Positions 5,600 to 59,389 of a DNA stretch of 64,000 bases are shown piece by piece. The notes beneath the pieces were generated by a model. The model worked only from the letters and a program-made list of their open reading frames with translations, did not search any database and was not told the DNA's origin. Position 1 is the stretch's first letter; every line of letters starts with the position of its first letter. The position numbers and the translations under genes were made by a program. This DNA is from an uncultured virus (IMG/VR IMGVR_UViG_3300032291_001634). Its lineage: Duplodnaviria > Heunggongvirae > Uroviricota > Caudoviricetes. Where the stretch lies: the IMG/VR virus record IMGVR_UViG_3300032291_001634; one strand, given 5' to 3'.

Positions 5600-5818
5600 A
5601 TGGCTAAATATCGTATCGGTATTGTATTTGAGTACGAAACAGATAGCAATGGATATTTTGATTGGGAAGATGAGTATGAGATTGAAGAAGAGGACAAAGA
5701 TGAAGACTTTGAACCTCGTAGTCAATCAAAATTACTTGAGTTACTCAAAGGAGAGTTCCTAGAAGTTATAGAACAACAAGATGTAAGTGACATGGTAACC
5801 ATTGAGGAGGTGAAATAA
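5600..5818 (+). CDS. hypothetical acidic protein
   Basis: operon spacing, SD GAGG. Confidence 0.7.
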   Translation: MAKYRIGIVFEYETDSNGYFDWEDEYEIEEEDKDEDFEPRSQSKLLELLKGEFLEVIEQQDVSDMVTIEEVK

Positions 5819-6006
5819 TGGCACAAAAATATGTAAAGCACTTAACACTAGAAGAATTAGCTGACCGTTTAGCTGAAGAACTAGTAGCAACTCACAATGA
5901 CACAGGTATTGACCTAGGTTATTGGGAGACAGCACTAGAAATCGTAGAGCGTTTCTACGAGGTTGAAGTAAAGGTAATCATTAAAAACAAAAGGAGCAAT
6001 AAATGA
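5818..6006 (+). CDS. hypothetical protein
   Basis: SD GGAGGTG, TAATG coupling. Confidence 0.75.
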   Translation: MAQKYVKHLTLEELADRLAEELVATHNDTGIDLGYWETALEIVERFYEVEVKVIIKNKRSNK

Positions 6007-6461
6007 TACAAACAATAATCAGTATGCTACCAGTAGCGTACGTAGCAGCAACAGCAATACCACTAGTAGCAATTGATATTAAACAGCACCGACTTCCTAA
6101 CAAGATTGTCTTGCCAATGATTGCGCTAACACTACTAACACAACTAACACTAGCCATATGGACAGGAGCCTGGGCGTCCCTAGGTATATCTGTAGGGTTA
6201 GGGTTTGCAGTAATGGTACTAGGTGTAGTAGCAAACTACTATGACTGGGTTGGTATGGGAGACGTAAAACTAATGACTGGATTAACTATGATGCTTAGTT
6301 GGTTTACAGTACTGGGAGCAGTATTACTTACTCCTATATCAATGGGATTAGGAATTCTAGTAATAGTATCAACCCTGTTGTTTACAAGGCCTAAGAAAAT
6401 TCCATTAGGGCCAGCAATTCTAGCAACATTCATAGCAACACTAACAATCACACTAATATAA
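6003..6461 (+). CDS. prepilin peptidase, family A24 (TadV/CpaA-like, no methylase domain)
   Basis: about 5 TM segments; AIDIKQHRLPN (Asp1), GMGDVKL (GxGD Asp2), C-terminal IPLGP. Confidence 0.88.
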   Translation: MIQTIISMLPVAYVAATAIPLVAIDIKQHRLPNKIVLPMIALTLLTQLTLAIWTGAWASLGISVGLGFAVMVLGVVANYYDWVGMGDVKLMTGLTMMLSWFTVLGAVLLTPISMGLGILVIVSTLLFTRPKKIPLGPAILATFIATLTITLI

Positions 6462-6471
6462 GGAAAAACAA

Positions 6472-6654
6472 ATGAGTAAAACAATATGGAGAATATACGT
6501 AGACTATGGCTCAGGCTATGGGTGGGTACCAGTTAACTGGGCACCTACATTTGCTACACAAGAAGAAGCAAACGAATGGATAAATGGTGACCACGATTGG
6601 GAATCACCAGTAACAGCACACGAAGAGGAAGTTGAAGAAGATGAAGACGACTAG
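6472..6654 (+). CDS. hypothetical protein, WAPTF paralog 1
   Basis: SD AAGGA; GWVPVNWAPTFATQEEANEWIN. Confidence 0.75.
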   Translation: MSKTIWRIYVDYGSGYGWVPVNWAPTFATQEEANEWINGDHDWESPVTAHEEEVEEDEDD

Positions 6655-9048: not shown

Positions 9049-9235
9049 GCTAGCAACTCAGCAAGGATGGAAAGTAGAACAACGAAACACCAATCACTAC
9101 AAACTAGTAGCACCAAATGGTAAAGTAGTGTTCACTTCATCCACACCATCAGACAGGCGTGCAATAGAAAATATTAAACGTGACTTACGTTCTGGTGGAT
9201 TGGTAATAATAAGGAAAAATGAAAGGCGCAAATAA
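9014..9235 (+). CDS. HicA-like mRNA interferase (dsRBD-like fold)
   Basis: QQGWKVEQRNTNHYKL..PNG...TPSD.R. Confidence 0.75.
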   Translation: MSMTKELRSLLELATQQGWKVEQRNTNHYKLVAPNGKVVFTSSTPSDRRAIENIKRDLRSGGLVIIRKNERRK

Positions 9236-9453
9236 TGGATATGGAACAAGCTGCATGTAAAGAGGCAGATGCTGACCTATTCTTCCCTGAAGGTAAGGAT
9301 AAACGTGAGCAAGAGTACAAGGCTAAAAAAATCTGTGCTTCATGCCCTATAGTCACAGACTGTCTACAGTTTGCTATAGACAATGACCAACTAGGTATAT
9401 GGGGTGGCACTACAGAAGATGAACGTAGACACATCAATGTAACCCTTAGGTAA
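9235..9453 (+). CDS. whiB: WhiB-family Fe-S transcription regulator
   Basis: four Cys (AAC, CASC, DCL), LFFP, GIWGGTTEDER. Confidence 0.93.
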   Translation: MDMEQAACKEADADLFFPEGKDKREQEYKAKKICASCPIVTDCLQFAIDNDQLGIWGGTTEDERRHINVTLR

Positions 9454-9457
9454 TAAG

Positions 9458-9500
9458 AAACCCCTGCCTGGCAATTAGCTGGGCAGGGGTTTTATTATTT
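9458..9500. terminator. intrinsic terminator between the convergent transcription blocks
   Basis: AAACCCCTGCCTGGC-aatta-GCTGGGCAGGGGTTT followed by a T-rich tract. Confidence 0.85.
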
Positions 9501-9684: not shown

Positions 9685-11727
9685 TTACTCCTTGTTGTTT
9701 TCTGTTATTAGTTTTACTTCACATGAGTCGGTGGTGCAGTAAGCCTCACCAACAGCATCTGCTGCCATACCAGCATACACCCCAGTAAAGTCAATTGCAA
9801 ATAGTTGCATTGCATACTCGGCGTACTCCTCCTCAGTTATCTGAGTATATGGCATCTGTGGGTACACATGGTTACCCATAGGGAGGAAGCTTACAGTCTT
9901 TAGCTGGCCATCGTACATATGTAGTACGGTGCCAACATCATCCTTTTCTTTTTCAGCGTCAAACGTTATAGTCACAGAGACAGAGTTGTCTGACCACCAA
10001 CGTTGTGCAGTAGCTGCTAGATTTATCTTTTCATATATAGACACTTCCTTTTCACCACGCTTAGCGTCAGTCTTGATAGGGAAGAATACTACCGATGTAG
10101 TGTCTGGTGATTCAGAGGCTGGTTCAATACGATAGTTAGCCATCTTAAACAAAGGCAACATAGGGTCATTGTTTGCAAAGCGAATAGCACGTAAGAAGAA
10201 CTTACCACCACTAGGCCAGTGAACTCCTGGAGACTCTCCAGCTAAGATAGACACAGTACCTGACGGCTTTACAGTAGTCATCTTAATAGACTCACGAATA
10301 CCTAGCCACTCACTATATGAAGTGTCGTAGTCACGTACAGTCTTATAGCCTTCATCCATCCACTCACGTAGAGCCTGCATACCTTTATTGTCTGCAAAGT
10401 TAGCAACACCAGAGACAGAAGTACCAATACGACGGTTCCTCTGCATGATGGCATTAGTCTCTTCCCAGTGTGTAGGTAGTAGTGTAACAGTCTTGGCATA
10501 CAAGTAAGCAAACTTCAACGTACGCTTGAAATCCTCAAGGGATTCGTGGCGATTCAAGTAAGTCTCAACCAGTGTACACATCTCAAAACTTTCAAGGCTC
10601 TGCTCTGCACAAGGGTTGTAGCCAACTACACGCCTGTCTTTATTATTAGGAGCGTCTACTAGACGGCCATATTTACGAGAGACATCCATCCATACAACAC
10701 CAGGCTCACCATTGCGAACAATACCATCGACAATAGGGCTGAAGTCTGTCCCAACACAAACATCCACAGAGTTGTTAGACATCCATGCCCAGCCAGGAGT
10801 CTCAGGGTCATATGAATTACGCTGAGGGAAACGGTCTGCATTCTTTAGGTTTAGGAAATCTTCGTCATCAATACGACCAATTAACAACTCAGCTGAACGA
10901 CGTACGTTACCCGAAACTACACAAACACCAATCATATTACCAATATCGGCAATATCAACGCGTGTCAACTTCTCGCCCTTACGGCCATCAAACATCTTCT
11001 TAATGTTCTCATGTAATTTAATCAACGGTTCCGGACCTGACGCTGTTCCTCCAAATGTCTTAATAACTGTTCCATATGGCCTAATATCATCATAATTGAA
11101 TTCGTATAATGGCTGTTCTGGCTTCAAATATGAATTAATCAATGCTGTTGTTGATTCTGCCCAACCTTCGCGGGTATCCGGAATCCTGTACTCTTGAACA
11201 ATTACTGGCTCGTATATATCAAACCCTTTATCAGCGCCTTTATCATCAAATCCTACACCCACGCCCAACATACTTGCTTCCATGAGGAATGCAAACGGTT
11301 TGCCTGGATTGTTTTTGGTCATTTCATTGGTGCTGACAAACGCGCAATTCTGCAATGCTGCCGAATTCTTCTGCTCATTTACAATATCAGTACCCATTAC
11401 CCACAACCCACGCCCTGGCGGTGTCCACTTCAAATTAAACAAACGGTCATATGCTTCTTTTGCTGATGCGGCGGCTTTTGCGTCGCTCCATGGCAAACGG
11501 TTCTGCTTTGCGTGGTCTTTCTGTAATGAATACATGCCGTTAATAACACGCTCACATACTTCTGCCCATGTTTCTTTGGTGCCATCTTCCTTTTTACGGG
11601 AATATGTGCGTAGGAATGTAATCTCTCCTACTGAGTTTCCGGCGACATCTGCGTAACCGAATGGTGCTTTCTTGTTCTTGTACCCCGCAATAAACTCTTC
11701 TGCTAATTTAAATGAAAAACTTGTCAT
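9685..11727 (-). CDS. nrdJ: class II adenosylcobalamin-dependent ribonucleotide reductase (RTPR type)
   Basis: RTYSR, PPGRGLW, LQNC, GNVRRSAE, NPCAEQ, VKPSGT, C-terminal CTTDSC. Confidence 0.95.
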   Translation of the reverse strand: MTSFSFKLAEEFIAGYKNKKAPFGYADVAGNSVGEITFLRTYSRKKEDGTKETWAEVCERVINGMYSLQKDHAKQNRLPWSDAKAAASAKEAYDRLFNLKWTPPGRGLWVMGTDIVNEQKNSAALQNCAFVSTNEMTKNNPGKPFAFLMEASMLGVGVGFDDKGADKGFDIYEPVIVQEYRIPDTREGWAESTTALINSYLKPEQPLYEFNYDDIRPYGTVIKTFGGTASGPEPLIKLHENIKKMFDGRKGEKLTRVDIADIGNMIGVCVVSGNVRRSAELLIGRIDDEDFLNLKNADRFPQRNSYDPETPGWAWMSNNSVDVCVGTDFSPIVDGIVRNGEPGVVWMDVSRKYGRLVDAPNNKDRRVVGYNPCAEQSLESFEMCTLVETYLNRHESLEDFKRTLKFAYLYAKTVTLLPTHWEETNAIMQRNRRIGTSVSGVANFADNKGMQALREWMDEGYKTVRDYDTSYSEWLGIRESIKMTTVKPSGTVSILAGESPGVHWPSGGKFFLRAIRFANNDPMLPLFKMANYRIEPASESPDTTSVVFFPIKTDAKRGEKEVSIYEKINLAATAQRWWSDNSVSVTITFDAEKEKDDVGTVLHMYDGQLKTVSFLPMGNHVYPQMPYTQITEEEYAEYAMQLFAIDFTGVYAGMAADAVGEAYCTTDSCEVKLITENNKE

Positions 11728-11857: not shown

Positions 11858-13327
11858 CTATTCGAGGGCATCCCGTATAATGTGGGTGGTTTGGTCTTCA
11901 GATAATGGCTTATCTAGGTTGCGTAATACGGATGCGCGGTCACCAAAAATACGCGATAACGCGCCTCCCTCTGTCTGACGACTTGCAGTAATCTGAATGA
12001 ACTCTTTATTAGTTTCCAGCTCTTTCATACTACCTACTAATTTAAACAAACGGTCTATCTCTTGTGACACGTTTGGGTCTGCGTATCCGCCGTTCATTTC
12101 TTCTGCGAACCGCATGAATGCTACTCTCTGGCCCTGCATTTCAACGATTGCGGTTAATAATGACTTCAACTGTTCTTTGGTCTTAACCTCTACTGGCAGA
12201 TTAAATGCACACGTATTTGCTGGCTTAAATGCTGGGCAATTGGCTGCAACAAAACAGGTGTCACACTGACGTAAACTGCTGTTGTTTGACTGAACAACTG
12301 GTACTTCTCTTAATACTTCATGGCCGTCTATATTGTCTACAATTGACTTCATTTGATATCCAAAAACAGGCATTGGAACTACCTCATTTGGGTCTCTTTG
12401 CACTACTTCTGTGCGTTCAAGTTTCCGCTCTTCACCATCACTGTTATTAGATGACCCCACCCCTAATTCCATCAAACCACTGTATAGGGTATCATCACTA
12501 TTATCAGATACTATACGCTTTTTATTATTATCCATTGTCTTCTCTAACTGTAAATACGACCAGATTGCAACTTTTGTTGCTTCCAGGGTCTCATCTTCTA
12601 CGAACTTTTTGAAATCTAACCCAGCTTTTTCAACAACTGATTTGTACCTTAAACGGGCCTGTGCCTTCATATTTTTAGGATAACGTATTAGTTTAGTATT
12701 ATCCCATATAATGGTCTCACCGCGCCTCATAGGGCTTATCCAGGCCAATGTAGAGGCATAGTCAAACGGTATCTGACGTAGATTATCTGGTTTGGCTGTG
12801 GCTAATGCCATAAACTGTGCTGAACTGTTTACTTTTATGGAACGAACGATTGCTGCCAGGGATGTTAATGACTCAACTGCATCTCCTGGAATTGCAATAT
12901 TAGCATACTCTGACCCCCAACGTGTTAACAAATTCTGACCATAAATCTCATGCCAAACAACCCACATCTTAGGGTCATTTTCAAATGCATCACGCTGTTC
13001 TAGAATCCAGTTGAACCCCATAACCTGTGAGTCAAACTCAATCCAACCTTCAATACGGTCGTAATTCATCGCAATAAACTCTTCGTAATCTGCTGCATAC
13101 TCCTCTAACTCCATCTTGGATAGGTTAGCTTTGTCTGCTTGTGTGGCCCCTGCGTCTACCCATACTTTCATATTAGGTAGGAAATGCTCCCCAATTAAAT
13201 ACGGTTTAGTCTTTGGTAGGCCACGCTTCCTCAACCCCCAGTAATTTAGGATTACGTGTTCTACTCCGCTGCGTTCTAGTAATGTACGATTGCTTGGAAT
13301 CTCTACCCCGCCAAATATTATCTTCAT
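11858..13327 (-). CDS. divergent TGT/DpdA-like TIM-barrel protein with C-terminal Cx2Cx5Cx8C domain
   Basis: motif order VWVDAGA, YEEFI, EFD, VVWH, NIAIPG, KPDNLRQIPF..STLAW..MRRG parallels DpdA/TGT-like proteins; CDTCFVAANCPAFKPANTC. Confidence 0.55.
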   Translation of the reverse strand: MKIIFGGVEIPSNRTLLERSGVEHVILNYWGLRKRGLPKTKPYLIGEHFLPNMKVWVDAGATQADKANLSKMELEEYAADYEEFIAMNYDRIEGWIEFDSQVMGFNWILEQRDAFENDPKMWVVWHEIYGQNLLTRWGSEYANIAIPGDAVESLTSLAAIVRSIKVNSSAQFMALATAKPDNLRQIPFDYASTLAWISPMRRGETIIWDNTKLIRYPKNMKAQARLRYKSVVEKAGLDFKKFVEDETLEATKVAIWSYLQLEKTMDNNKKRIVSDNSDDTLYSGLMELGVGSSNNSDGEERKLERTEVVQRDPNEVVPMPVFGYQMKSIVDNIDGHEVLREVPVVQSNNSSLRQCDTCFVAANCPAFKPANTCAFNLPVEVKTKEQLKSLLTAIVEMQGQRVAFMRFAEEMNGGYADPNVSQEIDRLFKLVGSMKELETNKEFIQITASRQTEGGALSRIFGDRASVLRNLDKPLSEDQTTHIIRDALE

Positions 13328-13809
13328 TCGAAATTCAAACCCTCTGTGCGATTTAACCTGGCATCTTTTGTGCGTAACTCGTTTTGCTTATTTATTGACT
13401 CTTCAATATCATTCCATGCCCTAACTGCTTTAGGTGCATCTGGACGAAACTCTACGCGGGTATAGCTTGGCACTGCAAACATAACGCTTGGAATGCCCAT
13501 ATTAAATGCATATGCCCACGCTTTTGGATTGTTTGTTATAAACAAATCTATTGCACCCTTTGCCCTGGCAACGTTAATTTGACGTTCTGCTAAATCTTCG
13601 CCCTCTAGGTGAACTGATGAGTCAATCAGGTTATCAAAATCAACAATCTTATTGGTATCTAGCCAATGTTGTATTTCAGGTTTAGGTGCGGCACCCATTA
13701 ATGTTACTTGGTTCCAACTGCTCAGTGTTCCCACCATAATAACTCCCGTGGCTATCGGGACGTCATTGGTACCCCTTAGTACTCCGTCTAGTTCTACTAA
13801 TATATGCAT
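13324..13809 (-). CDS. HAD-superfamily-like protein (atypical ExD motif I)
   Basis: MHILVELDGVL, LFITNNP; TAATG-coupled start, SD GAGG. Confidence 0.65.
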   Translation of the reverse strand: MHILVELDGVLRGTNDVPIATGVIMVGTLSSWNQVTLMGAAPKPEIQHWLDTNKIVDFDNLIDSSVHLEGEDLAERQINVARAKGAIDLFITNNPKAWAYAFNMGIPSVMFAVPSYTRVEFRPDAPKAVRAWNDIEESINKQNELRTKDARLNRTEGLNFE

Positions 13810-13919
13810 TAATCGTCCTCGTAAGTTTCTCCATAACAATCACACTTGCAGTTGTCTTCGGTACAAATTCCTTGGTATAACTCATGTGCGCATAAACGGC
13901 ACGTGTCTGCTAGTGACAT
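13809..13919 (-). CDS. 36 aa Cys-rich protein (not in ORF track)
   Basis: MSLADTCRLCAHELYQGICTEDNCKCDCYGETYEDD; TAATG at both ends. Confidence 0.7.
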   Translation of the reverse strand: MSLADTCRLCAHELYQGICTEDNCKCDCYGETYEDD

Positions 13920-14800
13920 TACTTATTCCTGTATACTGCTGCTCTGCGAATCAATGTTCGTGCGTCTGGTAGTTCTACCCCATATGGGTTATTGCTTTGT
14001 AGCGTGGTCATCATATGCTCCCTAACTTTTCTTAGGGATTCAATTGCACCACTACGCTTACCTGCTTGCCAACGGTAATTGTGGAAATCACCATAGCCTT
14101 CTCCGTCTCCGGAAAATGCCATGGACCTGTTGCTATGAATCTCATTATATAGGGCATTACCCTGTGCTGCTGCCATTGTTACGTTGTTTTCTGCATTACG
14201 TCTTATTGCATCATTTCGGGAATACTTAACATCTTGCATAGATGTTGTAAATTTAGTTTCAATACTTGAGGCTGTGCTCAAATCATTATCAGCAATGCTA
14301 TCCCACTCTGGATTGGATGGTGGTGCCTGGTTTGGGTCTGGTGTAACTACCCATTCACCGTACTTTAAATCGTATGCTGCATATGGTTTAATATCTCTAA
14401 TATCATCTGTGGCTAATGCGTAAAAGGTTAGCTCATACCCATTCCAGTTTTCAGTTGTACGCTGCAATTCATCGTGAAACTGCTCGTTTAACTGGTCGGA
14501 AATTTCTCTATTTGATAATCCCGCATAATCAATATTAGCTTTACGGAACTGTACAAAATTAATTCCAATTAGACAATCTAAGTCTTTAGGTTCTCTGGCG
14601 GCGTTCCATTGATAAGAAACTCCGGAACCAGCTAAGTATGGGTGTGTCCACAACTGTGCTTGCTGGTACTTACGGCCAATAAAATCATTTAATATGCTTA
14701 TGATACCAGAACGCACCCACGACTTTATTGACCGTCCACTAAATAATGTTGGGTCTAACTCGGTCGCAGGTGCGCTGAAATATGAGGTAGGATTGTTCAT
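13919..14800 (-). CDS. Pol-beta superfamily nucleotidyltransferase
   Basis: YLAGSGVSYQW...KDLDCLI (GS + DxD), ELTFY, AYDL..GEW. Confidence 0.78.
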   Translation of the reverse strand: MNNPTSYFSAPATELDPTLFSGRSIKSWVRSGIISILNDFIGRKYQQAQLWTHPYLAGSGVSYQWNAAREPKDLDCLIGINFVQFRKANIDYAGLSNREISDQLNEQFHDELQRTTENWNGYELTFYALATDDIRDIKPYAAYDLKYGEWVVTPDPNQAPPSNPEWDSIADNDLSTASSIETKFTTSMQDVKYSRNDAIRRNAENNVTMAAAQGNALYNEIHSNRSMAFSGDGEGYGDFHNYRWQAGKRSGAIESLRKVREHMMTTLQSNNPYGVELPDARTLIRRAAVYRNK

Positions 14801-14809
14801 ATACCTAGT

Positions 14810-15118
14810 TTATGCTGTTACTTCAGGGCTTTCTGGCTTAATCTTACGTTCTGCAAGTTTTTCGCTAATTACCTCAGATACTGTTGGCTCTGATGGTGGT
14901 GTTAGCAACTGTACAATAGTTGTTGCTAGACGTTCTACCAAACGCTGGTCATCTACTTCTTTAATTAGTATATGTGCCCACTGGTACACATCTGATACTG
15001 ACGCATCAACCTGAGTTTCTGGTGCATCTTCTGGCTTCTTTAGGTCGACAGAAAATGTGTCATCCTGATAGATGTTAACTACGAATTGTGATTTTACTTC
15101 TTTAGTTGTTTGTTCCAT
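14810..15118 (-). CDS. hypothetical protein
   Basis: ORF in operon. Confidence 0.7.
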   Translation of the reverse strand: MEQTTKEVKSQFVVNIYQDDTFSVDLKKPEDAPETQVDASVSDVYQWAHILIKEVDDQRLVERLATTIVQLLTPPSEPTVSEVISEKLAERKIKPESPEVTA

Positions 15119-15128
15119 TTTATTCTTT

Positions 15129-15680
15129 CTAATATAGTCCAAGGATTTGGCGTTTACGTTCTAACACTTTACCATGATACGGGCAGAAATGGCAAGTGTA
15201 TACTTGGGGGCCTTCCAGATGTTCTGGCTTAGGCATACCCAATTCTTTGCGCTCCATTGCTGTGTCTGGCAACAACCGCTTTTTAGGTGTTTCATAATCT
15301 TCACAGTTAGTTGTGACTTTATTATGTGCTATCCAGCATTTCATGGCTTCATCAGCAAATGTCATTTTAGTTTCATAAAATGTTTTATTAGGGTCTAGTT
15401 CATCTAGGCCTTTTGAACCACCATCTGCTAGTTGTGCTAGGATAGCTTTCTTTTCTTCTGCATTTGCCCATGATTTGACTGGAACTTTAAACAGCTTACC
15501 TACGTGTGGGTCACCGGATGGAAACTTGTGTTTTTCTATTGAAATCTCTAATAGGTAATCAAAATTAGATGGTCCCTCGTAGTCTGGGAGCTCTTCCCAG
15601 GTTTCACACACCATACAACGTAATAGGCGAATGATTGGTCCATCAATCGGCTTTGACCCAATTACAGGTTTATTTGACAT
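15129..15680 (-). CDS. Cys/His-containing hypothetical protein
   Basis: CMVC, CW..H, C, CHFCP; SD AAGGAG. Confidence 0.8.
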   Translation of the reverse strand: MSNKPVIGSKPIDGPIIRLLRCMVCETWEELPDYEGPSNFDYLLEISIEKHKFPSGDPHVGKLFKVPVKSWANAEEKKAILAQLADGGSKGLDELDPNKTFYETKMTFADEAMKCWIAHNKVTTNCEDYETPKKRLLPDTAMERKELGMPKPEHLEGPQVYTCHFCPYHGKVLERKRQILGLY

Positions 15681-15907: not shown

Positions 15908-17335
15908 CTACAATAAATATGGCTTGTTAGCTTCGCTTACTAGCTTTGCCTTTTTTCTTAATAACTCAGACGGCTTAGGGATGTAGGCTACAATTCCATC
16001 TTTAACTGCTTTTTGGTATGCCCGTTCTTTTTGAGGACCAATAACAAAATGGTCTTCAAATAATTTATGAATTGAATTTGGGTCACTTTTGAGTTTTGCC
16101 ATAGTACCTTCAACATCTCCACCTCTACTAGAGTTAATTGCTTCTGGTAGAGTTTTTCTAGCCCAATTATAACTGTCAGTTGTTCCTGAAATAGAGTACC
16201 TAGATGGTGCGGCACTAGAACCAGTTATTCTTTTAGCATCTTTTTGGCCATACTTGGCGTACAGTGCACTATGGTGCAACTCTAGTGCACTGTATTGTTT
16301 CTCGACTGGCTTGGCATTTGTATTAATTACTTCTTGAGTTTCTGGGTGAGTGTAGAATGTTCCTGGGTGCTGTGTCTCACCGGTTTTAAGTAGTCCAGCT
16401 ACTCCATTATTATTGCTTCTAACATATTGTGAAGTGTGCTTAGTATACGCTGATATGTGTTCGCCATCAACCATGTGGCCCAAACCTCCAGGTACTGGAC
16501 GGTATTCATCAGCTGTAATATTAGATTCATTAGGTGCAAAAGATTTAGTTTTATCTGTGTAAGCTAGTTCAGGTGCTCCTGGAGCAACCTTTACTGGCGT
16601 TACTGTAACGGTTCCATCTGACTTAATGTCTAAAGCATTTCTGTGCGGTAATGCACGGTCTCTTCCTAGTCTAGGCCTTACAACTTGTCTCCAGTTTTCT
16701 TGCTGAGCAGCCAAATTAAAAGGCCTGCTAGCTGGACTGCTAGTTGAACTTTCCTTAGATACAGGAGTTTGGTTATTTCTTACTTGTTCTTCTTTACGAT
16801 ATTCTTCTCGCTGTGATTCTTCTCTTGCTTTCATGCTTTCATAATTAGCTCTAGCTGATGCCCATTCACTTTGCGGAGTAGACGCTCTGAGAAGTGTGGT
16901 ACCTCCTATAGTAACTCTTTGTTCAGGAGGATATTTTGTATCCATTTGTTTTTGGTAGGCTGCAACACGGGCTCGTCTTTCAGCCATTTCTGGATTAATA
17001 GAACCGGTGTTTGAAATTTTACTTGCAAACGAATATTTTCTAGCTAAATCAGTAGGTGTAAAGTTTATATTTGCAGGTTTTGATTCAATTTCTTCGGTTG
17101 CTGACTTTTGTGTAGTACCTAATGGCTTCCAGCCTTCTGGTAAGGATGATTGGCGTGATTGAGATTCGCTTAATGCTTTACGTAAATTATCTGCATTATC
17201 TTCATTGTCCATGATAGGGGCGACAAGGGGCTGGTTTTTAGTTCCAGTTCTTGGTCCACGAGTCTTTTTCTCCGCAGGAGCATTGGAAAATTTTACTGCC
17301 GGAGCTTTACCTTTTGCAGGTTTCTTTGCAGCCAT
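15908..17335 (-). CDS. large basic low-complexity protein
   Basis: 475 aa, MAAKKPAK start, Ala/Lys/Pro/Ser-rich. Confidence 0.8.
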   Translation of the reverse strand: MAAKKPAKGKAPAVKFSNAPAEKKTRGPRTGTKNQPLVAPIMDNEDNADNLRKALSESQSRQSSLPEGWKPLGTTQKSATEEIESKPANINFTPTDLARKYSFASKISNTGSINPEMAERRARVAAYQKQMDTKYPPEQRVTIGGTTLLRASTPQSEWASARANYESMKAREESQREEYRKEEQVRNNQTPVSKESSTSSPASRPFNLAAQQENWRQVVRPRLGRDRALPHRNALDIKSDGTVTVTPVKVAPGAPELAYTDKTKSFAPNESNITADEYRPVPGGLGHMVDGEHISAYTKHTSQYVRSNNNGVAGLLKTGETQHPGTFYTHPETQEVINTNAKPVEKQYSALELHHSALYAKYGQKDAKRITGSSAAPSRYSISGTTDSYNWARKTLPEAINSSRGGDVEGTMAKLKSDPNSIHKLFEDHFVIGPQKERAYQKAVKDGIVAYIPKPSELLRKKAKLVSEANKPYLL

Positions 17336-17355
17336 TATAATACTTTCTTTATTAA

Positions 17356-17568
17356 CTACTTACCAGGGTTTACTTTAGATGACGCTGGGGCCTCTGAAGT
17401 AGCAAACCCGTATCCGAAGAATGGGTGTAGTGTTTGACGGTTGTCTAGAGTCTTCTCGTGACCATCGTGGTCCATAACCTCAGTGTCAGGGCGAACCTTA
17501 CGGTACTTACCATCAGTTGCACCTTCGTCTAGGCTTGCGTTCATTGAACGGCTAGTATTTACGGCCAT
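17356..17568 (-). CDS. hypothetical protein
   Basis: SD AAGGA; MAVNTSRSMN. Confidence 0.75.
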   Translation of the reverse strand: MAVNTSRSMNASLDEGATDGKYRKVRPDTEVMDHDGHEKTLDNRQTLHPFFGYGFATSEAPASSKVNPGK

Positions 17569-17938
17569 TATTTCTTCCTTCATTCATGTCATTCGCAAAG
17601 TCATTAACGAATTCCTGTTGATGCTCACCCATCTGGGCTTGCAAAATGTGTGTAGTTAAAGGGTAGTCTACCCTTTGACCCATTTCATCTCTTATATCAA
17701 ACGATTTTGCTGCCTGGTTTAAGTGATGTCCTGCGTCTGTTAGTTCTAGCATAGCAGATGCGCTGTAAGGTTGCTTATTATGCTCCGCTTTACCTGATTC
17801 AATAGCTGACATAGCGTTCTTTAAGTGTCCCGTAATACTCTTCACATTATTATAGCCCAGGTTACGACCGTGCTCACTTGCATAATCCAACATGTGGAAA
17901 TACAAATCTGCAGCCTTGTCAAACGAAGGGTGAGACAT
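17552..17938 (-). CDS. helical hypothetical protein
   Basis: TAATG coupling. Confidence 0.75.
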   Translation of the reverse strand: MSHPSFDKAADLYFHMLDYASEHGRNLGYNNVKSITGHLKNAMSAIESGKAEHNKQPYSASAMLELTDAGHHLNQAAKSFDIRDEMGQRVDYPLTTHILQAQMGEHQQEFVNDFANDMNEGRNNGRKY

Positions 17939-18141
17939 TATACCATTTTCCTATTAATACGGTCTTGACGGCGTTTTTCACCGCAATCAGAGCAAATACC
18001 TAACTTAGTGTACATATACTCTACTGGGTTTATCATGATTCCACATGTTGGACATGGATGAGAACCACGATAGTTTATTGAGTTCTTTGCTATTTGATAC
18101 GCTTGAAGCTCTAGTGTTAAGGCACCATCTCCGTTATCCAT
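17938..18141 (-). CDS. zinc-ribbon protein
   Basis: CPTCG...CSDC; TAATG coupling. Confidence 0.75.
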   Translation of the reverse strand: MDNGDGALTLELQAYQIAKNSINYRGSHPCPTCGIMINPVEYMYTKLGICSDCGEKRRQDRINRKMV

Positions 18142-19964
18142 TATTCACCTGCTCCAGTCATAAAGTGAATTGTTCTGCCTTCAGGAGTTCTAGGCTTTAA
18201 AGCCATTGCGGCCTCTGTTTTAGCTACACTTCCTGTAGTAGCTCCCTCTTCATTTATACCAGTAGTTTTATCTGGAGTAAATTCAACTGAAGTGTCTTTT
18301 CTACTTAATGCTGCACCAGAAGCTTTTGCTCTTGCTAGTTGGCGTTTATTAACGGCCTCAGGAACATCAATTTGGTTGTATTTCTCAGCTGCTGCACTTT
18401 CACCAGCGGAAGGATAGAATGCTGCTAAAGAACCCTTCTTAGGGATATCTATAGGTTCACCTTCAGGTGTTCCCGCTGGTCTTGCAAAAACTCTTTTTTC
18501 AAATGAGGATTTAGGATTTGGAGTAAAGATTGTTAGTCTAGCAGATTTTTGTCCGTCATATTCAAGTGGTTTGGTCTGAAGTTTATTTGCTGACTTATAA
18601 CCAGATATGTCAGCAGCAGCATCGCTACTTTCAAAATCTTCTGGTCTGGCTCCCTTAGTATTCTTAACCCAGTGAGACCTTACTTGGTTTTTTTCATGCC
18701 AAGATGCAGGGTCTGTGTGGGCCTCTGAACCAACAAAAGTCTTTTTAATGTATTCTTTTCCGACTTCTGCTGCTGATGCTTCATTTTGTTTTTCATTATA
18801 ATCAAACACAGGCTGAACTTGGGCTCTTCCCCACCTTAAACTAAAAGGCACAGGAGATGCTGTGTTGTTTTTGTTTAACTCTGCTAATTTAGCAGTATCT
18901 TTAGGTGATAAAGGTTCTGCAGGATAGTTTTCAGACGGTTTTACAATATTTATAAACCCTTTTTCTGCTTTTCTTCTTTGCTCAGCTTCCCCTTGTCGGG
19001 CACGTCTGGAAGATACAGCAGCAGCTGTTGCTGCTTTTTCTTCGTCTGTTTTAGGCGCTAGGTTACCTAGAGCAGCGGTTACTTGAGGAACTTCTCTCCA
19101 AGTTGCATAATTTCTTTTAAGTTGTGGCTTTATTTCCTTAGCAATATTATCTGGAATAATTCCAGCCGCTGTTGAACGACTAAGGGCATGGTTAGTATAT
19201 GCTTCAACTAGATTTGTTATTTTTTCATGTGAGTCTAAATCAACGTTTACTGGACTTTCTGAGTTACCATACTCAGGACCATCAAACACTTTTTTATATT
19301 TTTGAGAAGTTTTAAAAGCATCACGAGCGTATGTCAAGGCACCTGCTAAGCTATCGCCAGCTTTAGTAAATGACTCCAATGCTGAAAGGGCTCCTTCAGC
19401 TCCACCAGCATGGTGAGCGTTAAATGAGTTAGTGTGATGCTTTTCTGCTTGGTCTAGGAGAGTCTCGACTGAGCTCAGTTTTTTTATTGTTTGAGGAGAT
19501 ACAAAGCTTCTTCGTTTACCTCCAGCATCAACCATACGGTCTACAGGTACCCCTTGTTTTTCTGCTGTATAAGCGGCACGTTCTTTAGCATCACCTTTAA
19601 CTTGGTTCTTAACTTGGCTTACACGACTTTTAACATCATTTATCATAGACAATAAAGAGTCATGATAGTTTGTATTTTCGCTAATTTTATTAGGTGCGTT
19701 TAATCTAAACCCGCGGTCAACAGAAGGTAAAGGTTCTCCTGAATCAAGCATGGCTGTAAAAGCGGATGTTCTAGCTGCTTTTTTAGCGTTTGCTTCAGCT
19801 GCTGCTGCTTTAACTTCTTCTAGTGTTGGGGCTTTTTTAGGTTCAGCTTTAGGTTTGGCGGCTTTTTGAGTTGCTTTTACAGAGGTTTTTTTAGCGTTTC
19901 TTTCAGCTGCTCTAGCTTTAATCCTTGCAAGTTCACTTGCACTAAGTTTTGATGTTCCAGCCAT
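18141..19964 (-). CDS. large Ala/Lys-rich low-complexity protein
   Basis: 607 aa ORF, TAATG coupling. Confidence 0.8.
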   Translation of the reverse strand: MAGTSKLSASELARIKARAAERNAKKTSVKATQKAAKPKAEPKKAPTLEEVKAAAAEANAKKAARTSAFTAMLDSGEPLPSVDRGFRLNAPNKISENTNYHDSLLSMINDVKSRVSQVKNQVKGDAKERAAYTAEKQGVPVDRMVDAGGKRRSFVSPQTIKKLSSVETLLDQAEKHHTNSFNAHHAGGAEGALSALESFTKAGDSLAGALTYARDAFKTSQKYKKVFDGPEYGNSESPVNVDLDSHEKITNLVEAYTNHALSRSTAAGIIPDNIAKEIKPQLKRNYATWREVPQVTAALGNLAPKTDEEKAATAAAVSSRRARQGEAEQRRKAEKGFINIVKPSENYPAEPLSPKDTAKLAELNKNNTASPVPFSLRWGRAQVQPVFDYNEKQNEASAAEVGKEYIKKTFVGSEAHTDPASWHEKNQVRSHWVKNTKGARPEDFESSDAAADISGYKSANKLQTKPLEYDGQKSARLTIFTPNPKSSFEKRVFARPAGTPEGEPIDIPKKGSLAAFYPSAGESAAAEKYNQIDVPEAVNKRQLARAKASGAALSRKDTSVEFTPDKTTGINEEGATTGSVAKTEAAMALKPRTPEGRTIHFMTGAGE

Positions 19965-21751
19965 TAGTCATTTCCTCTTCTTGTAATTCCTAGCATTGCA
20001 GCTTCTGCGATTATTTGTGCATCACTCTTCTTTTTTCTAGAAGGCGTAGAGGCTTTTTTCTCTGCAGCGGCGGTGGCTTTGTTTTTCTTTTCTGCTAAAT
20101 AAAGTTCGTATGCATGGTCAACAAGTTTTTGTCTATCTGCTAAGTCTTGGTCAATTTCAGCAGCAGCAGAGGCAGATGTTCGTGCTGCAGATTGCGCTCT
20201 ATTGGTTATAGCGGCACGTTTCCTTGCAGGAAGAGTGTCCCAGTTTCTTTCAACTGGTTTAGCTTCCGGCTTTGGAGCTGGGGCAGACGGTGAACTAGGT
20301 GCAGGGTTAATATCCTGAACGGTAGTATGCATAGCTCCGGCTTTAACTAGTTCTTTAAATGAAAGTGGTTTACCTTTATCATTAAGGTGTGGAACTTCTT
20401 GTCCATTTGCACCAATTACTTTTTGCCCAACATGTTTGCCAAAAGGCACAAGTTTAGTATCCTTTGATGCTGGAAGTCTGTCTACCGGCTTACCGTTAAC
20501 AAATGCCCAACGTTGACCGGTGATTTTATGCTGACCAATTTCAGCATTTGCTGGATAGGCATTTGGATTAACGTACACAAAACTAACTTTTTTACTTTTA
20601 ACTAAATTATCTGGATTGCCTGGGGTGATTCCGGCTCCCAAGCTTGTAGGTCTAGCACCGGCAAACCCGACAGTATCAAATGCTGAACCCATGTCATTGT
20701 TTCCAATAGTTAGTGGTCCCGGATTGGTTGGCCCGTATTCTGCTCCGCCTTTAGGGGTACCTTTTTTAGAGAATTTAAGTGTTTTTCTAGCTAACTGTTT
20801 GCTAACTCCTGGGTGCTTTCCTTCATCAATTTCTCTGTTTACCTGAACAAGGCGTTCAAATGTTTCCTGGGTGTTTTGTAGTTTAGAAGCCCCACCTCTT
20901 CCTAGTTTTATATATTTAGGGAGGTTTGTTCTGTCTGATGGCACTGCGTGTTCAACAAGGGCATGAGCTCTAGGAACATCTGTTGAACTAGTACCTACTG
21001 GTGGTAAACTTCCCGCTGTCGTGTAGTACTCCGGCAGGTGCATTTGTTCGTTTGCTTGATGAATAGCGTCTGTAGCTGCTCTCATATGAACATTTGTTAC
21101 GTGTACACTGTTCGCAGCTTTAGAAGAAACTGCTTGGTTCAAAGAATGCTGAGCAAGGAAAACCATGTTGCCTATGTTGTTGTGCATACTATATAAAGGA
21201 TGAGAACTGTCATCACCAATTTTTTCATCAACTTTATTCCAGTGGTCATTTAGCACTTTAATATTTGCTTGAGTTTCTGAAAGAATTTGTCTCTGACCTT
21301 TAGTTGCGTTTACCGCTCCCGGGAAAGGCATCCTTTTTCTTAAAGTGTCTTCGTATTCGCTTTCGGCAGAAGAGCCTTTAGGTGCAGGAGCAGCAGCAGA
21401 TTTAGGAGTTCTTGGTTCTGCAGCTCTTTTTAATAGTGGGTCACTTAATGGATTGCCTTCAATGTCGTGAGTTTCACCAACAACTTTTCCACCTCTAAGC
21501 TTGAAAATCTTTTTTTCATTTTCGCTTTTAAACTCTTCTGGGAATCTTGCTCCGGACGGCAAAGAAGATTGTCTTGAGCCAGGAACAGTTACTGCACCTG
21601 GAATATAAACAGGTCTTGATACTGAAACTTCTTCTGACTTTGCTTTTTTTGCAGCAGCATCTTGTTCAGGGGTTAATGCTGAACCTAAACCCAACTCAAC
21701 TGGAGTAGCTCCTGCACCTTTATGGCCTTTACCAAATTCTTCTAGACTCAT
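19964..21751 (-). CDS. large Ala/Lys/Pro-rich low-complexity protein
   Basis: 595 aa ORF, TAATG coupling. Confidence 0.8.
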   Translation of the reverse strand: MSLEEFGKGHKGAGATPVELGLGSALTPEQDAAAKKAKSEEVSVSRPVYIPGAVTVPGSRQSSLPSGARFPEEFKSENEKKIFKLRGGKVVGETHDIEGNPLSDPLLKRAAEPRTPKSAAAPAPKGSSAESEYEDTLRKRMPFPGAVNATKGQRQILSETQANIKVLNDHWNKVDEKIGDDSSHPLYSMHNNIGNMVFLAQHSLNQAVSSKAANSVHVTNVHMRAATDAIHQANEQMHLPEYYTTAGSLPPVGTSSTDVPRAHALVEHAVPSDRTNLPKYIKLGRGGASKLQNTQETFERLVQVNREIDEGKHPGVSKQLARKTLKFSKKGTPKGGAEYGPTNPGPLTIGNNDMGSAFDTVGFAGARPTSLGAGITPGNPDNLVKSKKVSFVYVNPNAYPANAEIGQHKITGQRWAFVNGKPVDRLPASKDTKLVPFGKHVGQKVIGANGQEVPHLNDKGKPLSFKELVKAGAMHTTVQDINPAPSSPSAPAPKPEAKPVERNWDTLPARKRAAITNRAQSAARTSASAAAEIDQDLADRQKLVDHAYELYLAEKKNKATAAAEKKASTPSRKKKSDAQIIAEAAMLGITRRGND

Positions 21752-55536: not shown

Positions 55537-55847
55537 TTCTTAACCTTGTCTATTTTGTCGTTCAATAAGATAGAAAAGACTTTACCAAACTCGGCATTCA
55601 TGTTACCGAATCTTCTTAGGGTGCCCTTACTTACTCCATTAGCACCCTGGTACTCTAAGTCAAACACTTGCACACGGTATTGGGCACTATCAATTTTATA
55701 GGCTCTGCTACCCTCTTTTACAGTTAGGGAACTAGCAACTTCTGCTGGCCACCCCTGATTTTGGGTATAGATGCGCGCCTGCTTAGTTATCTCTTTAACT
55801 AAGTCTTTTTTAGCTGCTTCAAATGCTGGCTTTAAATAGTCTAACAC
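55533..55847 (-). CDS. hypothetical protein (possible neck/tail completion)
   Basis: GWP, DLEY; structural operon context. Confidence 0.55.
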   Translation of the reverse strand: MLDYLKPAFEAAKKDLVKEITKQARIYTQNQGWPAEVASSLTVKEGSRAYKIDSAQYRVQVFDLEYQGANGVSKGTLRRFGNMNAEFGKVFSILLNDKIDKVKK

Positions 55848-56044
55848 TACTGCTTCTTACCTGTATGGGATTGCGGTCTTTCGAATTTATCGTTCATGTA
55901 GCCTGAGCTAAGCATACCCATGAGTACATCGTGGCGAAGGTTAGGGTTCAATCCGTTAGCTCCTTGAGTAAACTCTTTTATCTCTTGGAATGCTAAATAT
56001 TGATTTACCTTCGTCCACCAGGGTTTAAATTCTGGAGAAGACAT
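55847..56044 (-). CDS. hypothetical protein
   Basis: SD AAGGA; first gene after the terminator. Confidence 0.65.
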   Translation of the reverse strand: MSSPEFKPWWTKVNQYLAFQEIKEFTQGANGLNPNLRHDVLMGMLSSGYMNDKFERPQSHTGKKQ

Positions 56045-56113
56045 CGCAAAATCCTTTACAGGCGCAGACTACATTACGTAGATAGGTTCCGCACGGTTCC
56101 TATACTATAAGGA

Positions 56114-56142
56114 TAAAGAAAAACCCTGACGTTGTCAGGGTT
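56114..56142 (-). terminator. intrinsic terminator ending the basic-protein array
   Basis: AACCCTGAC-AAC-GTCAGGGTT followed by TTTCTTT on the minus strand. Confidence 0.8.
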
Positions 56143-56163
56143 AATCTAAATGTTTGTGTTGGA

Positions 56164-56475
56164 TTAGTTCTTCTTCTTAGCCATTACAGCTTTTGCTTTC
56201 TTAGCCCTAGCTGCTTTAAGTTTCATAGACGGATTCAAAGCTTCTTTTGTAATTCCCTTGTTTTGAGCTGAATCTGCTGCAGCTTCTTTTGGAGTTCTTC
56301 CTGCTGGAATGTTTCCGTTTACAATCCTAGATGCTCTCTTTGGGGAAAATGCCTTTTTTACAGAGTTTTTTTGAGCAGTAGTTCTTGGAAGACCTGCGTC
56401 AGTATTACGTATTGCACGCATTTGTGTTGCGCCTTTTTTCATCCCTTTACGGGTAACTTTAGGTGTATTTGCCAT
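56164..56475 (-). CDS. small Lys/Arg-rich protein
   Basis: TAATG coupling; strongly basic. Confidence 0.75.
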   Translation of the reverse strand: MANTPKVTRKGMKKGATQMRAIRNTDAGLPRTTAQKNSVKKAFSPKRASRIVNGNIPAGRTPKEAAADSAQNKGITKEALNPSMKLKAARAKKAKAVMAKKKN

Positions 56476-56762
56476 TATTTCTTTCCTGTCTTCTTAGCGT
56501 TTTCGCGCTTCTCGCCAGCTTTGCCTTCACGCTTTTCGTGGGCAGAGTGCTTCTTGATACCCTTAATAATCTTGGCATCAATCTTCTTGTCTTGCTGCAT
56601 GGTCTTAGGCTTCTTTTTGTCGCCGTGAGCCTTGTCTTTCTTTTCAAATTCACGCTTTTCAGCAGGGGTTAGCCCCTTAGTCATCTTGGCGTCCTTTTTC
56701 TTGTCTTTTTCCTCAGTGTACTTGCCTTTAAGGAATGCCGGCATAGGCTTCTTAGTAGCCAT
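56475..56762 (-). CDS. small Lys/Glu-rich protein
   Basis: MATKKPMPAFLKGK; TAATG coupling. Confidence 0.75.
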   Translation of the reverse strand: MATKKPMPAFLKGKYTEEKDKKKDAKMTKGLTPAEKREFEKKDKAHGDKKKPKTMQQDKKIDAKIIKGIKKHSAHEKREGKAGEKRENAKKTGKK

Positions 56763-57100
56763 TACTTACTACCTGTTCCCTTACCATAGTTAGCTTTTCT
56801 ACTAATCTGCTGGTTATTATTCATGTTGCCAGGGTTTTTCTTGGTAAGTACTGGCTTTTTTACAGCTGGCTTAGCAACTGGGGTCTTTGGAGCGTTAACC
56901 TTAGGCTCCTTGTACTGCTGGTTCATCTCAGCATGTGTTTTTTCTCTTGGGCCTTGGACGCCCATTTGATTAGACAGACTTTGTTTAGGGGCTCCTTTTA
57001 CGGCTGGCTTAGTTACTTGCTTAGTGGTCTTTCCACCCTTTTTAGTTTCTCCAGCTACACGCTTACGTGCGCCACCAGTCTTTGTATTTCTAACTGCCAT
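56762..57100 (-). CDS. small Lys-rich protein
   Basis: AKPAVKKP repeats; TAATG coupling. Confidence 0.75.
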   Translation of the reverse strand: MAVRNTKTGGARKRVAGETKKGGKTTKQVTKPAVKGAPKQSLSNQMGVQGPREKTHAEMNQQYKEPKVNAPKTPVAKPAVKKPVLTKKNPGNMNNNQQISRKANYGKGTGSK

Positions 57101-57234
57101 TATTTCTTTCCTTTTGCTTTAGTCATTGAGTGCTTATTACGTACCGCAAGAGACTGGGTACGCTTCATAGCAGGATTCTTCTTGGTCTTACAAGCTGGGC
57201 AAGTGCCACAGCCACAGGGCTTCTTAACTGCCAT
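57100..57234 (-). CDS. 44 aa basic protein with CxCxxCxxC (not in ORF track)
   Basis: MAVKKPCGCGTCPACKTKK; TAATG at both ends. Confidence 0.7.
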   Translation of the reverse strand: MAVKKPCGCGTCPACKTKKNPAMKRTQSLAVRNKHSMTKAKGKK

Positions 57235-57386
57235 TATTTAACTCCATAGTTTGAAGAGGTATTTTTAGCTTTTACAGCTTTAGGCTTAGAGACTTTGCCT
57301 TTATTATGTGATTTTATTGTAGCAGGTGCCTCAGCATTTTTTCTAGGTCTAGTATTCTTAGCCTTTTTTATTTTAATTTCAGCCAT
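57234..57386 (-). CDS. 50 aa Lys-rich protein (not in ORF track)
   Basis: MAEIKIKKAKNTRPRK; TAATG at both ends. Confidence 0.7.
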   Translation of the reverse strand: MAEIKIKKAKNTRPRKNAEAPATIKSHNKGKVSKPKAVKAKNTSSNYGVK

Positions 57387-57667
57387 TATTTCTTTCCTAC
57401 TCTCCGCTTGTTTTCTTTAGCGGTGTTCTTTCCATGCTTCAAAGGACGAAGGTTAGACTTACGGTCATCTGAATGCTTGTTGTTTTTGTGGTCTACGTCA
57501 GTTCCTCTAGGGAGTTTACCGTTCTTTTCCTCATACTCCGCACGGGCCTTATTCTTGCTCGTGGTGTGCCATTTGCCGTCTTTGCCCTTTGTCTTGTAAA
57601 CATAGATTGGACGGCCTCCATTGGCCGCTGAGCCCTTATATGGACCGAATCTCTTGGTCTCTGCCAT
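57386..57667 (-). CDS. small HNH-fold protein
   Basis: DVDHKNNKHSDDRKSNLRPL.HGKN. Confidence 0.8.
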   Translation of the reverse strand: MAETKRFGPYKGSAANGGRPIYVYKTKGKDGKWHTTSKNKARAEYEEKNGKLPRGTDVDHKNNKHSDDRKSNLRPLKHGKNTAKENKRRVGKK

Positions 57668-59162: not shown

Positions 59163-59171
59163 TTTTATCCT

Positions 59172-59387: not shown

Positions 59388-59389
59388 TA

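Follow-up and report, generated by a model that had tools for sequence, protein, structure and literature searches.

In the literature, DpdA counts as the hallmark of 7-deazaguanine modification of DNA. The phage enzymes closest to the protein considered here are DpdA1 of phages 9g and CAjan, which inserts preQ0, and the long-form DpdA of Bacillus phage BCD7 (gp021, 757 aa); FolE, QueD, QueE and Gat-QueC-like genes are neighbours of the 9g gene, and FolE, QueC, QueE and QueD lie directly beside that of BCD7. Bacterial DpdA (Salmonella Montevideo, 7UI4), which has a partner, DpdB, and tRNA-guanine transglycosylase (TGT) are built on the TGT-type TIM barrel; three active-site Asp residues are invariant in TGT and DpdA, and their substitution by Ala abolishes the base exchange, as described in PMC10164549. 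Singleton DpdAs are mentioned in the main text of Hutinet et al. (2019) as proteins that may have diverged functionally. Here we analysed a 64,000-nt stretch of DNA (hereafter the window) of an uncultured virus of the class Caudoviricetes (IMG/VR IMGVR_UViG_3300032291_001634), in which a minus-strand gene (11858..13327) encodes a 489-aa DpdA-like protein. It is a true DpdA relative by fold and homology and belongs to a large branch without the catalytic nucleophile; the branch is a widespread, active-site-remodelled offshoot of the known DpdA family, and the 489-aa protein probably does a job different from 7-deazaguanine insertion.

The grounds for the family assignment are structural as well as evolutionary. 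The AlphaFold2 (AF2) model, based on an alignment of 97 diverse relatives (A1), consists of a barrel (residues 1-273, encoded by 12509..13327), a disordered linker and a C-terminal domain with four Cys and long helices (residues 350-489, 11861..12280); the block means of the predicted local distance difference test (pLDDT) are 91-98 over the first 270 residues. In the Foldseek comparison with the PDB the top 50 rows are all TGTs (best E 3.8e-6, probability 1.00), and VIA aligns the model with TGT at Z 17-18 and a root mean square deviation (rmsd) of 3.4 Å over 256-264 residues. In the TGT-type barrel the catalytic positions stand at the ends of strands 3, 4, 5 and 8. The earlier note on this DNA, which was made from the letters alone, had proposed a TGT/DpdA-like barrel and would have given it up if the protein did not model as one; the protein does model as a barrel of the TGT type. 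The relation to phage DpdA, claimed in the same place, is borne out by profile comparisons: the 489-aa protein matches phrog_887 over its whole length (E 3.2e-56), as does the experimentally validated DpdA of 9g (E 2e-98 to this family); hhalign of A1 with the alignment of 9g-type DpdA1 proteins gives Prob 98.2 and E 6e-14 over 210 columns and with BCD7 gp021 Prob 99.9 and E 1e-32 over the whole barrel; and the hidden Markov model of the 489-aa family recovers 9g DpdA at E 6e-10.

Sequence and profile searches of the 489-aa protein gave nothing significant in the PDB and, as for the other proteins of the window, nothing in NCBIfam, and Pfam, including its TGT model, matched neither this protein nor the 97 family members. 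No PDB chain of a DpdA or TGT was recovered with the DpdA1 profile. When A1 or the DpdA1 alignment was compared by hhalign with E. coli Tgt as a single sequence, nothing but the D-S-G motif was aligned, with low probability. The protein has homologues in 795 representative clusters, and its branch has at least 530 relatives in IMG/VR. In two of the relatives (P0243 and P0253) an HNH endonuclease domain is fused N-terminally to the DpdA-like protein. Compared with DpdA1 of 9g, the window protein differs in the first 50 residues, which carry a G-x-E motif, and has an added linker and Cys4/helical domain; the long-form protein of BCD7 resembles it along the whole barrel, including the N-terminal G-x-E motif, and has the same C-terminal domain.

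The active site is where the branch departs from its relatives. According to PMC7544227, the model of CAjan DpdA has a pocket of S64, F67, D105, H132, G153, G154 and F189, the nucleophile D206 and a second catalytic Asp, D63. The 9g numbering equals that of CAjan plus 9 at all nine residues named there, and the corresponding 9g-type columns (D72, S73, F76, D114, H141, G162, G163, F198 and D215) are invariant. By hhalign they map, in the same order, to D58, A59, T62, D99, H126, P147, G148, L175 and S192 of the window protein. Thus, the Asp of D-S-G, the base-binding Asp and the His (H132 in CAjan, H141 in 9g) are shared with the DpdA1 enzymes, but the nucleophile, Asp206 in CAjan and D215 in 9g, is replaced with Ser. 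Predicted strand 8 ends, C-terminally, with S192; in bacterial DpdA the nucleophile D256 has the same location, where the strand-8/helix-8 insertion begins (PMC10164549), and a weak match of 9g residues 156-223 to positions 199-263 of the NCBIfam DpdA profile has a spacing that fits D256. An equivalent of D256 is missing in the window protein, which distinguishes it from bacterial DpdA and TGT, and, despite the common type of barrel, it has no sequence-level match to any PDB chain.

The replacement is a property of the branch. Conservation was followed over 104 loci (23 close and 79 distant IMG/VR loci, Streptomyces phage BRock and GiJojo), gathered with the 489-aa protein itself and a 16-sequence sub-alignment; their open reading frames (ORFs) were searched with jackhmmer profiles. 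Asp is present at the nucleophile position in none of the 104 loci (Ser in 50, Ala in 36, Val in 9, Thr, Leu and His in two each, Ile and Gly in one each) and in one of the 97 representatives, whereas BCD7 gp021 retains every catalytic residue, the Asp of D-S-x-x-W (GDSTTW) included, and the barrel protein of Bacteroides phage BS162P1 also has this Asp (svDSvtW). The general acid/base Asp, D58, which aligns with D72 of 9g and with the D-S-G of E. coli Tgt, is present in the window, in 82 of the 104 loci and in 64 of the 97 representatives. The barrel of the branch retains a good part of the guanine pocket (D58 in most members, D99, H126) but not the Asp of the covalent enzyme-nucleic acid intermediate of TGT and DpdA. 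The earlier note had pointed to altered DpdA motifs, and the translation indeed contains V-D-A-G, F-M-A-L-A and S-T-L-A-W in the places concerned, the most consequential change being that at the nucleophile position. At the Ser, Phe, Gly-Gly and Phe positions the window protein has A59, T62, P147-G148 and L175, and M173 occupies the position of a His of 9g. A 98% identical relative (L003) has S59 together with M173, and most relatives have Ser and His, so that the window copy is at the derived extreme of the pocket changes. Outside the nucleophile, W196 is kept in 103 of the 104 loci and is invariant in A1, and G203 and W208 are each kept in 101; together with the Cys4 cluster and the inteins discussed below, this pattern indicates strong selection on the 489-aa protein.

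A working singleton DpdA could supply phage DNA with a 7-deazaguanine of host origin, or with some other base, with the help of a non-canonical carboxylate, the partner proteins helping or tailoring; we consider this unlikely. What speaks for it, besides the clear homology to validated DpdA1 and to a BCD7 DpdA that lies within a complete preQ0 cluster, is the retention of D99 (98 of 104 loci), H126 (86) and a His at position 173 (93), in addition to D58, and also the acidic residue 204 in a G-[E/D]-T motif after strand 8, which is kept in 103 of the 104 loci and 93 of the 97 representatives and in one relative is part of an intein site. However, D58 is gone in 22 of the 104 loci, the positions of the Gly-Gly loop and of the pocket Phe are not kept across them, the pocket of the window protein is changed still further at A59, T62, M173 and L175, and an exchange reaction that stops when the nucleophile Asp is mutated would have to proceed in a branch where none of the 104 loci has it. 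Residue 204 is not an obvious replacement either, since BCD7 gp021 has Glu at the equivalent position besides the canonical Asp; it likewise has the equivalents of E9 and E97, so these residues are ancestral to the long form.

The supply of the precursor bears on the same question. None of the 47 larger ORFs of the window, scanned against PHROGs, belongs to a preQ0-pathway family, which agrees with the earlier note, where folE, queD, queE and queC had been described as absent from the window. Five related genomes, namely BRock and four relatives that are 96-100% complete, were searched with the Pfam models of QueC (PF06508), FolE (PF01227), QueD (PF01242) and radical SAM proteins (PF04055), and each model matched in none of the five. 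One of the four is G001, a complete relative whose protein is 98% identical to the 489-aa protein and which served for the whole-genome context. The BRock orthologue is listed in Supplementary Data 1 of Hutinet et al. (2019) with a DpdA entry only and no synthesis genes, which places it among the DpdA-only phages and is compatible with a singleton enzyme. So is the occurrence of dADG, reported in PMC8306585, in a phage whose own DpdA clusters with those of phages without synthesis genes. As far as we could find, no paper deals with the partner module of the DpdA/BRock branch, its missing nucleophile, its inteins or the link of its C-terminal domain with a terminase-position protein; in print the branch figures only in this supplementary-table listing. 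The locus had been presented in the earlier note as the best candidate for an undescribed system; given the listing of BRock as a DpdA phage, this is not wholly true of the family.

The second conserved part of the protein is its C-terminal domain. The cluster C355-x2-C358-x5-C364-x8-C373 is invariant in A1 and kept in all 100 loci that cover it; it lies 80 residues past the barrel, behind the disordered linker, and is followed by helices predicted at 384-411, 418-439 and 456-488. In TGT and bacterial DpdA the Zn subdomain is attached to the barrel, whereas the Cys cluster of the window protein is in a separate domain after a linker. Homologues of this domain occur in three other settings: as the C-terminus of BCD7 gp021; as a separate 251-aa protein of BS162P1 (Prob 99.3), whose gene adjoins that of the barrel; and as residues 272-421 of Orf1 (447 aa) of Tsukamurella phage TIN2 (Prob 95.5, E 1.5e-8, 134 columns; tblastn E 0.03), a protein annotated as the terminase small subunit and encoded directly upstream of the large terminase gene, overlapping its start. 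Recurrence in BCD7, BS162P1 and TIN2 marks the domain as separable; binding of DNA or oligomerisation is a plausible role. BRock gp36 and the domain of the window also gave weak matches to phrog_6902 ('terminase small subunit'), and on a bold reading the domain would tie the 489-aa protein to the DNA-packaging machinery. The N-terminal 270 residues of TIN2 Orf1 are, however, not a TGT barrel, and genes of the window type are not beside the large terminase gene (TerL). In G001 TerL spans 42.1-43.7 kb and the DpdA-like gene about 70.3-71.8 kb, and in BCD7 gp021 is about 31 kb from TerL; as TerL is not adjacent, an assignment as small terminase by position was rejected. The two adjacent BS162P1 genes (L127; 4848-5675 for the barrel with the canonical Asp and 5725-6480 for the Cys4/helical domain) are both annotated as hypothetical.

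Inteins with LAGLIDADG domains were found in the DpdA-like proteins of four representative relatives (P0272, P0327, P0340 and P0343). Two of them are inserted at C358, one at C373 and one, that of P0340, at the G-[ED]-T motif corresponding to window residues 203-205. Their placement points to the conserved motifs as functionally critical and to a gene that the phage can ill afford to lose.

Taken together, the loss of the nucleophile Asp and the absence of preQ0 genes lead us to suppose that the canonical double-displacement insertion has been abandoned in this branch. The reading that we favour, if only tentatively and as something a little short of probable, is that the 489-aa protein performs no canonical 7-deazaguanine insertion and is a nucleic-acid-binding, base-flipping factor with non-canonical chemistry or none. 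The DpdA-like barrel would bind nucleic acid, most probably DNA, and flip bases; the C-terminal domain, kin of the protein at the small-terminase position in another actinophage, would serve for metal-dependent DNA binding or oligomerisation; and any remaining chemistry would be non-canonical, for example via the nearly invariant acidic residue 204. The non-catalytic eukaryotic TGT subunit QTRT2 provides a precedent for a TGT-fold protein kept without catalytic residues, with the difference that QTRT2 pairs with a catalytic paralogue, while the Pfam TGT model matches nothing in the five related phage genomes.

Several points weigh against this reading. DNA is preferred to RNA as the target only by analogy with the closest relatives that have been characterised. 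The canonical D-S-x-S-W is present in one relative, P0252. Residue 204 is acidic nearly throughout, and E9 and E97 are nearly invariant, so that a relocated nucleophile with true transglycosylase or glycosylase activity is conceivable. Phages with DpdA but without preQ0 genes can carry modified DNA made via host precursors, as stated in PMC8306585. As to the C-terminal domain, the label of TIN2 Orf1 as a small terminase is the depositor's annotation only, and in complete G001 some 27 kb separate the DpdA-like gene from TerL. Finally, the 104 loci all come from one virus family and are not independent samples. Anyway, a branch that has neither the nucleophile nor, in five genomes, the precursor genes and is nevertheless under selection is one where a DpdA-type annotation probably misleads (the GenBank labels for the orthologues are queuine tRNA-ribosyltransferase or DpdA-like), and in such phages the presence of the gene alone is insufficient to predict modified DNA. 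If a new activity or a structural role, for instance by way of the domain in common with TIN2 Orf1, proves true, the branch will be an example of a DNA-modifying enzyme repurposed. Its carriers BRock, GiJojo, LuckySocke and Alone3 are cultured on Streptomyces, which makes the branch directly testable.

The 489-aa protein does not travel alone. Among the 104 loci, a HAD-like protein is encoded in 102, a 183-aa Cys-rich protein (g183) in 91, a 110-aa protein (g110) in 89, a nucleotidyltransferase (NTase) in 75, the class II ribonucleotide reductase NrdJ in 23 and a 36-aa six-Cys peptide in 10; some of the absences may stem from truncated contigs or divergence. The order g183, g110, (NTase), HAD-like, DpdA-like is kept in all but two loci, and in these the stop-to-stop frames of g183 and g110 overlap, which reversed their sorting. 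Sixteen loci have g183, g110, the HAD-like and the DpdA-like gene and no NTase; 11 have the last two only (one of them with nrdJ). Searches of 50,697 phage records with the NTase, with the HAD-like protein and with the full-length DpdA-like protein led in each case to the same six Streptomyces phage records only. The partner profiles found nothing in the BCD7 region, in 9g (first 50 kb) or in the BS162P1 stretch; the BCD7 region examined contains none of g183, g110, the NTase or the HAD-like gene, and the neighbours of the DpdA-like gene in the window are not those of preQ0 synthesis known from 9g. Nor was a DpdB-like partner seen. Confinement to the same six records and absence from BCD7, 9g and BS162P1 show that the partners are specific to the nucleophile-less branch. 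The genes are thus linked in relatives, as the earlier note had required for its reading to stand: g183, g110, (NTase), (36-aa peptide), HAD-like and DpdA-like genes form a conserved lineage-specific module, whose flanks differ.

Conserved order does not by itself mean a joint function, as the genes could be collinear core genes of one virus family that are adjacent through shared descent. The carriers, actinophage-type myoviruses of about 90-117 kb that include BRock and its kin and many uncultured contigs, do appear to be one family (GiJojo TerL shares 49-59% identity with that of four contigs of uncultured phages), and many loci have insertions: the gap between the NTase and HAD-like genes reaches 3.6 kb, and in BRock an endolysin gene lies between g110 and the NTase and an extra gene between the HAD-like and DpdA-like genes. 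On the other hand, the order survives at protein identities near 30% and against changing flanks (nrdJ is a case in point), the HAD-like and DpdA-like genes are together in 102 of the 104 loci, the three proteins coincide in six records of the 50,697, and the stop/start overlaps in the window suggest translational coupling. We find shared descent alone an improbable explanation. The partners of the DpdA-like protein that stay constant are the HAD-like protein without its nucleophile and the Cys-rich g183/g110 pair; the NTase is an optional add-on.

The gene of g183 (15129..15680, minus strand) is the first constant member of the module. A homologue lies upstream of the DpdA-like gene in each of the 91 loci, in BRock as gp42. 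The protein has the pattern CxxC...C...C...CxxC; in its alignment (A7) four Cys (C22, C115, C163, C166) are invariant and two more (C25, C126) almost invariant. No match to g183 was found in Pfam, PHROGs, NCBIfam or the PDB, and the ESM Atlas gave no lead. The gene of g110 (14810..15142, minus strand) overlaps it by 14 nt; its product is weakly conserved, gave in family searches only an insignificant PHROG match (E 0.05), is always encoded beside g183 and corresponds by coordinates to gp41 of BRock. Both are more constant partners than the NTase. The six-Cys peptide C36 (13809..13919, minus strand) is the opposite case. It had been counted as a member of the system on the strength of the window, and there it is real, with TAATG junctions on both sides, but as an insert between the NTase and HAD-like genes it is specific to a clade: tblastn found it in 13 of 25 loci and an ATG-started Cys-rich peptide was seen in eight, and these, like the 10 loci found by jackhmmer, are all close relatives. 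In distant relatives the gap between the two genes is mostly 6-60 nt or is filled with other genes, so that no ORF of the C36 type fits.

The HAD-like protein, HAD161 (13324..13809, minus strand; 161 aa), has 395 homologues and is encoded upstream of the DpdA-like gene wherever it is present. Its motif E-L-D-G-V-L has Glu at the position of the nucleophile, and among the 103 sequences compared this position is Val in 36, Glu in 21, Thr in 13, Ala in 12, Phe in 6 and Asp in 5. The next acidic position is Glu in 58 and Asp in 41, and G9 is kept in 99. Pfam, HAD models included, matches neither the window protein nor any of the 52 family members tried, and the PDB gave nothing significant, the best HAD chain having E 0.9. 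ESM Atlas features point to a NIF-type HAD (0.90), as a weak lead only, and depositors label the orthologue 'phosphatase' or 'hydrolase'. A HAD fold is putative, suggested by motif resemblance, this lead and these labels. In the earlier note it had been read as an atypical HAD; the missing motif-I nucleophile is confirmed and the HAD assignment finds no Pfam match, and the alternative given there, of a partly pseudo-enzymatic complex, fits a HAD161 without nucleophile. The complex prediction of HAD161 with the 489-aa protein scored 0.00 without controls and is uninformative either way.

The NTase, NT293 (13919..14800, minus strand), is a protein of the Pol-beta superfamily with a C-terminal helical bundle and has 1392 homologues. 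It has G58-S59, D73-L-D75 and E123, and G58, S59, D73, D75 and E123 are invariant in 54 sequences; the same hG[GS], DxD and third carboxylate are found in minimal NTases of the HI0073/MNT type. NT293 looks catalytically intact. Unlike these enzymes, it has a distinctive invariant C-terminal helical domain (H222, R225, W244, Q245 and K248). The AF2 model (pLDDT 90.7) superimposes, in its N-domain 17-147, on HI0073 (1no5_B) with Z 6.5 and rmsd 3.7 Å over 95 residues at 19% identity, which is a modest match, and on 1ylq_B with Z 6.4; Foldseek gives weak rows to ANT(6), CD-NTases and the CCA-adding enzyme, and a BFVD relative (E 2e-8) is named 'Polymerase, nucleotidyl transferase domain containing protein'. 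The rest of the model was of no help, because unspecific matches of three-helix bundles to residues 160-271 prevailed in the wide VIA search. Sequence searches of the PDB gave nothing significant for NT293, no Pfam NTase model matched, and the only Pfam trace of the family is a weak DUF6932 match in 10 of 54 members (best E 0.0039). An NTase encoded near gp021 in BCD7 was considered as a homologue and turned out to be unrelated.

NTase domains of this kind are also part of multidomain proteins of RNA-repair or counter-defence type (P0392-P0401; 572-1955 aa, one of them from a Streptomyces genome), in which they accompany GNAT, 2H phosphoesterase, NUDIX and Arr-type ADP-ribosyltransferase domains. 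Such a fusion context suggests RNA-end or nucleotide/ADP-ribose chemistry for the relatives of NT293 and not the supply of bases to a transglycosylase. A pathway that needs a nucleotidylated substrate, as the earlier note had it, is unlikely, for the NTase is missing in 29 of the 104 loci, which keep the rest. The same absence counts against an RNA module for tRNA repair or modification, in which the barrel would bind tRNA, the NTase extend damaged ends and the HAD-like protein heal ends as a phosphatase. The fusions, with the 2H phosphoesterases belonging to the '2'-5' RNA ligase' superfamily, agree with such a module, as do the ancestral role of the TGT superfamily in tRNA and the equipment of GiJojo (many tRNAs, an RNA ligase and a Ro-like protein) and BRock (29 tRNAs). 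But the nearest characterised relatives, 9g and CAjan, work on DNA; the nucleophile Asp of the HAD-like protein is missing in 98 of the 103 sequences, which makes a phosphatase role doubtful; G001 (94 kb, complete) has one tRNA, Trp-CCA (L130, 10528-10599), and the window none; and no neighbour of the RNA ligase type was found in the module by the partner profiles. An RNA module appears to us quite improbable.

A bolder view, to which we give a low probability, is that the barrel is still an enzyme with the catalytic carboxylate relocated to the G-[E/D]-T motif and, with g183, the HAD-like protein and, where present, the NTase, installs or removes a nucleobase other than 7-deazaguanine. Were it true, actinophage-type myoviruses of an abundant lineage would have, among their core functions, a new pathway of base exchange in DNA (or RNA).

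In the window the module is part of a longer minus-strand run of overlapping or abutting ORFs (15846-9685), which begins with a 58-aa ORF that overlaps or abuts g183 and ends with nrdJ. The four ORFs that the earlier note had described, from NT293 to the 489-aa protein, are all present at their coordinates, with the quoted motifs (GS...DLD of the NTase, the six Cys of the peptide, ELDGVL of the HAD-like protein and those of the 489-aa protein) in the translations and with TAATG at the NTase/C36 and C36/HAD-like junctions and ATGA at that of the HAD-like and DpdA-like genes. The extent given for this operon (11858..14800) falls short, since the string continues two to three genes further upstream. 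For HAD161 the most likely start is the ATG at 13809: the resulting protein has 161 aa, like almost all of the 120 listed homologues. A start at the TTG further upstream (13839) is less probable. NrdJ (9685..11727, minus strand; Pfam RNR_Alpha, RNR-II_ins_dom and Ribonuc_red_lgC; phrog_367, E 2.5e-142) follows the 489-aa gene after a 130-nt spacer. Its adjacency, which the earlier note had included in its description, is true of the window and is not a general feature: nrdJ is a downstream neighbour and not a constant partner, although in 22 of the 23 loci carrying it, it does lie downstream of the DpdA-like gene.

The PHROGs scan of the 47 larger ORFs identified the window as that of a myovirus with a WhiB-like gene, for which 'actinophage myovirus' is a fair description. 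The scan for promoters and terminators in the window gave hits at chance level. A 16-bp GC-rich hairpin followed by a T-rich stretch (9457-9493), between the WhiB-like gene (9235-9453, plus strand) and the end of the leftward gene block, is probably a terminator. Just upstream of the module (15908-21751) there are three large minus-strand ORFs (475, 607 and 595 aa) without a PHROG match, of which the first two have Ala/Lys-rich N-termini. A region of about 3.9 kb (55537-59389) contains no ORF of 120 aa or longer and no tRNA, and the AT skew at 56-58 kb is -0.36. In two of four uncultured relatives the match to TerL includes one in-frame TAA (G001:C1:42147-43661 and G004:C1:21332-22873), which could reflect a frameshift, an intron/intein boundary or a sequencing error.

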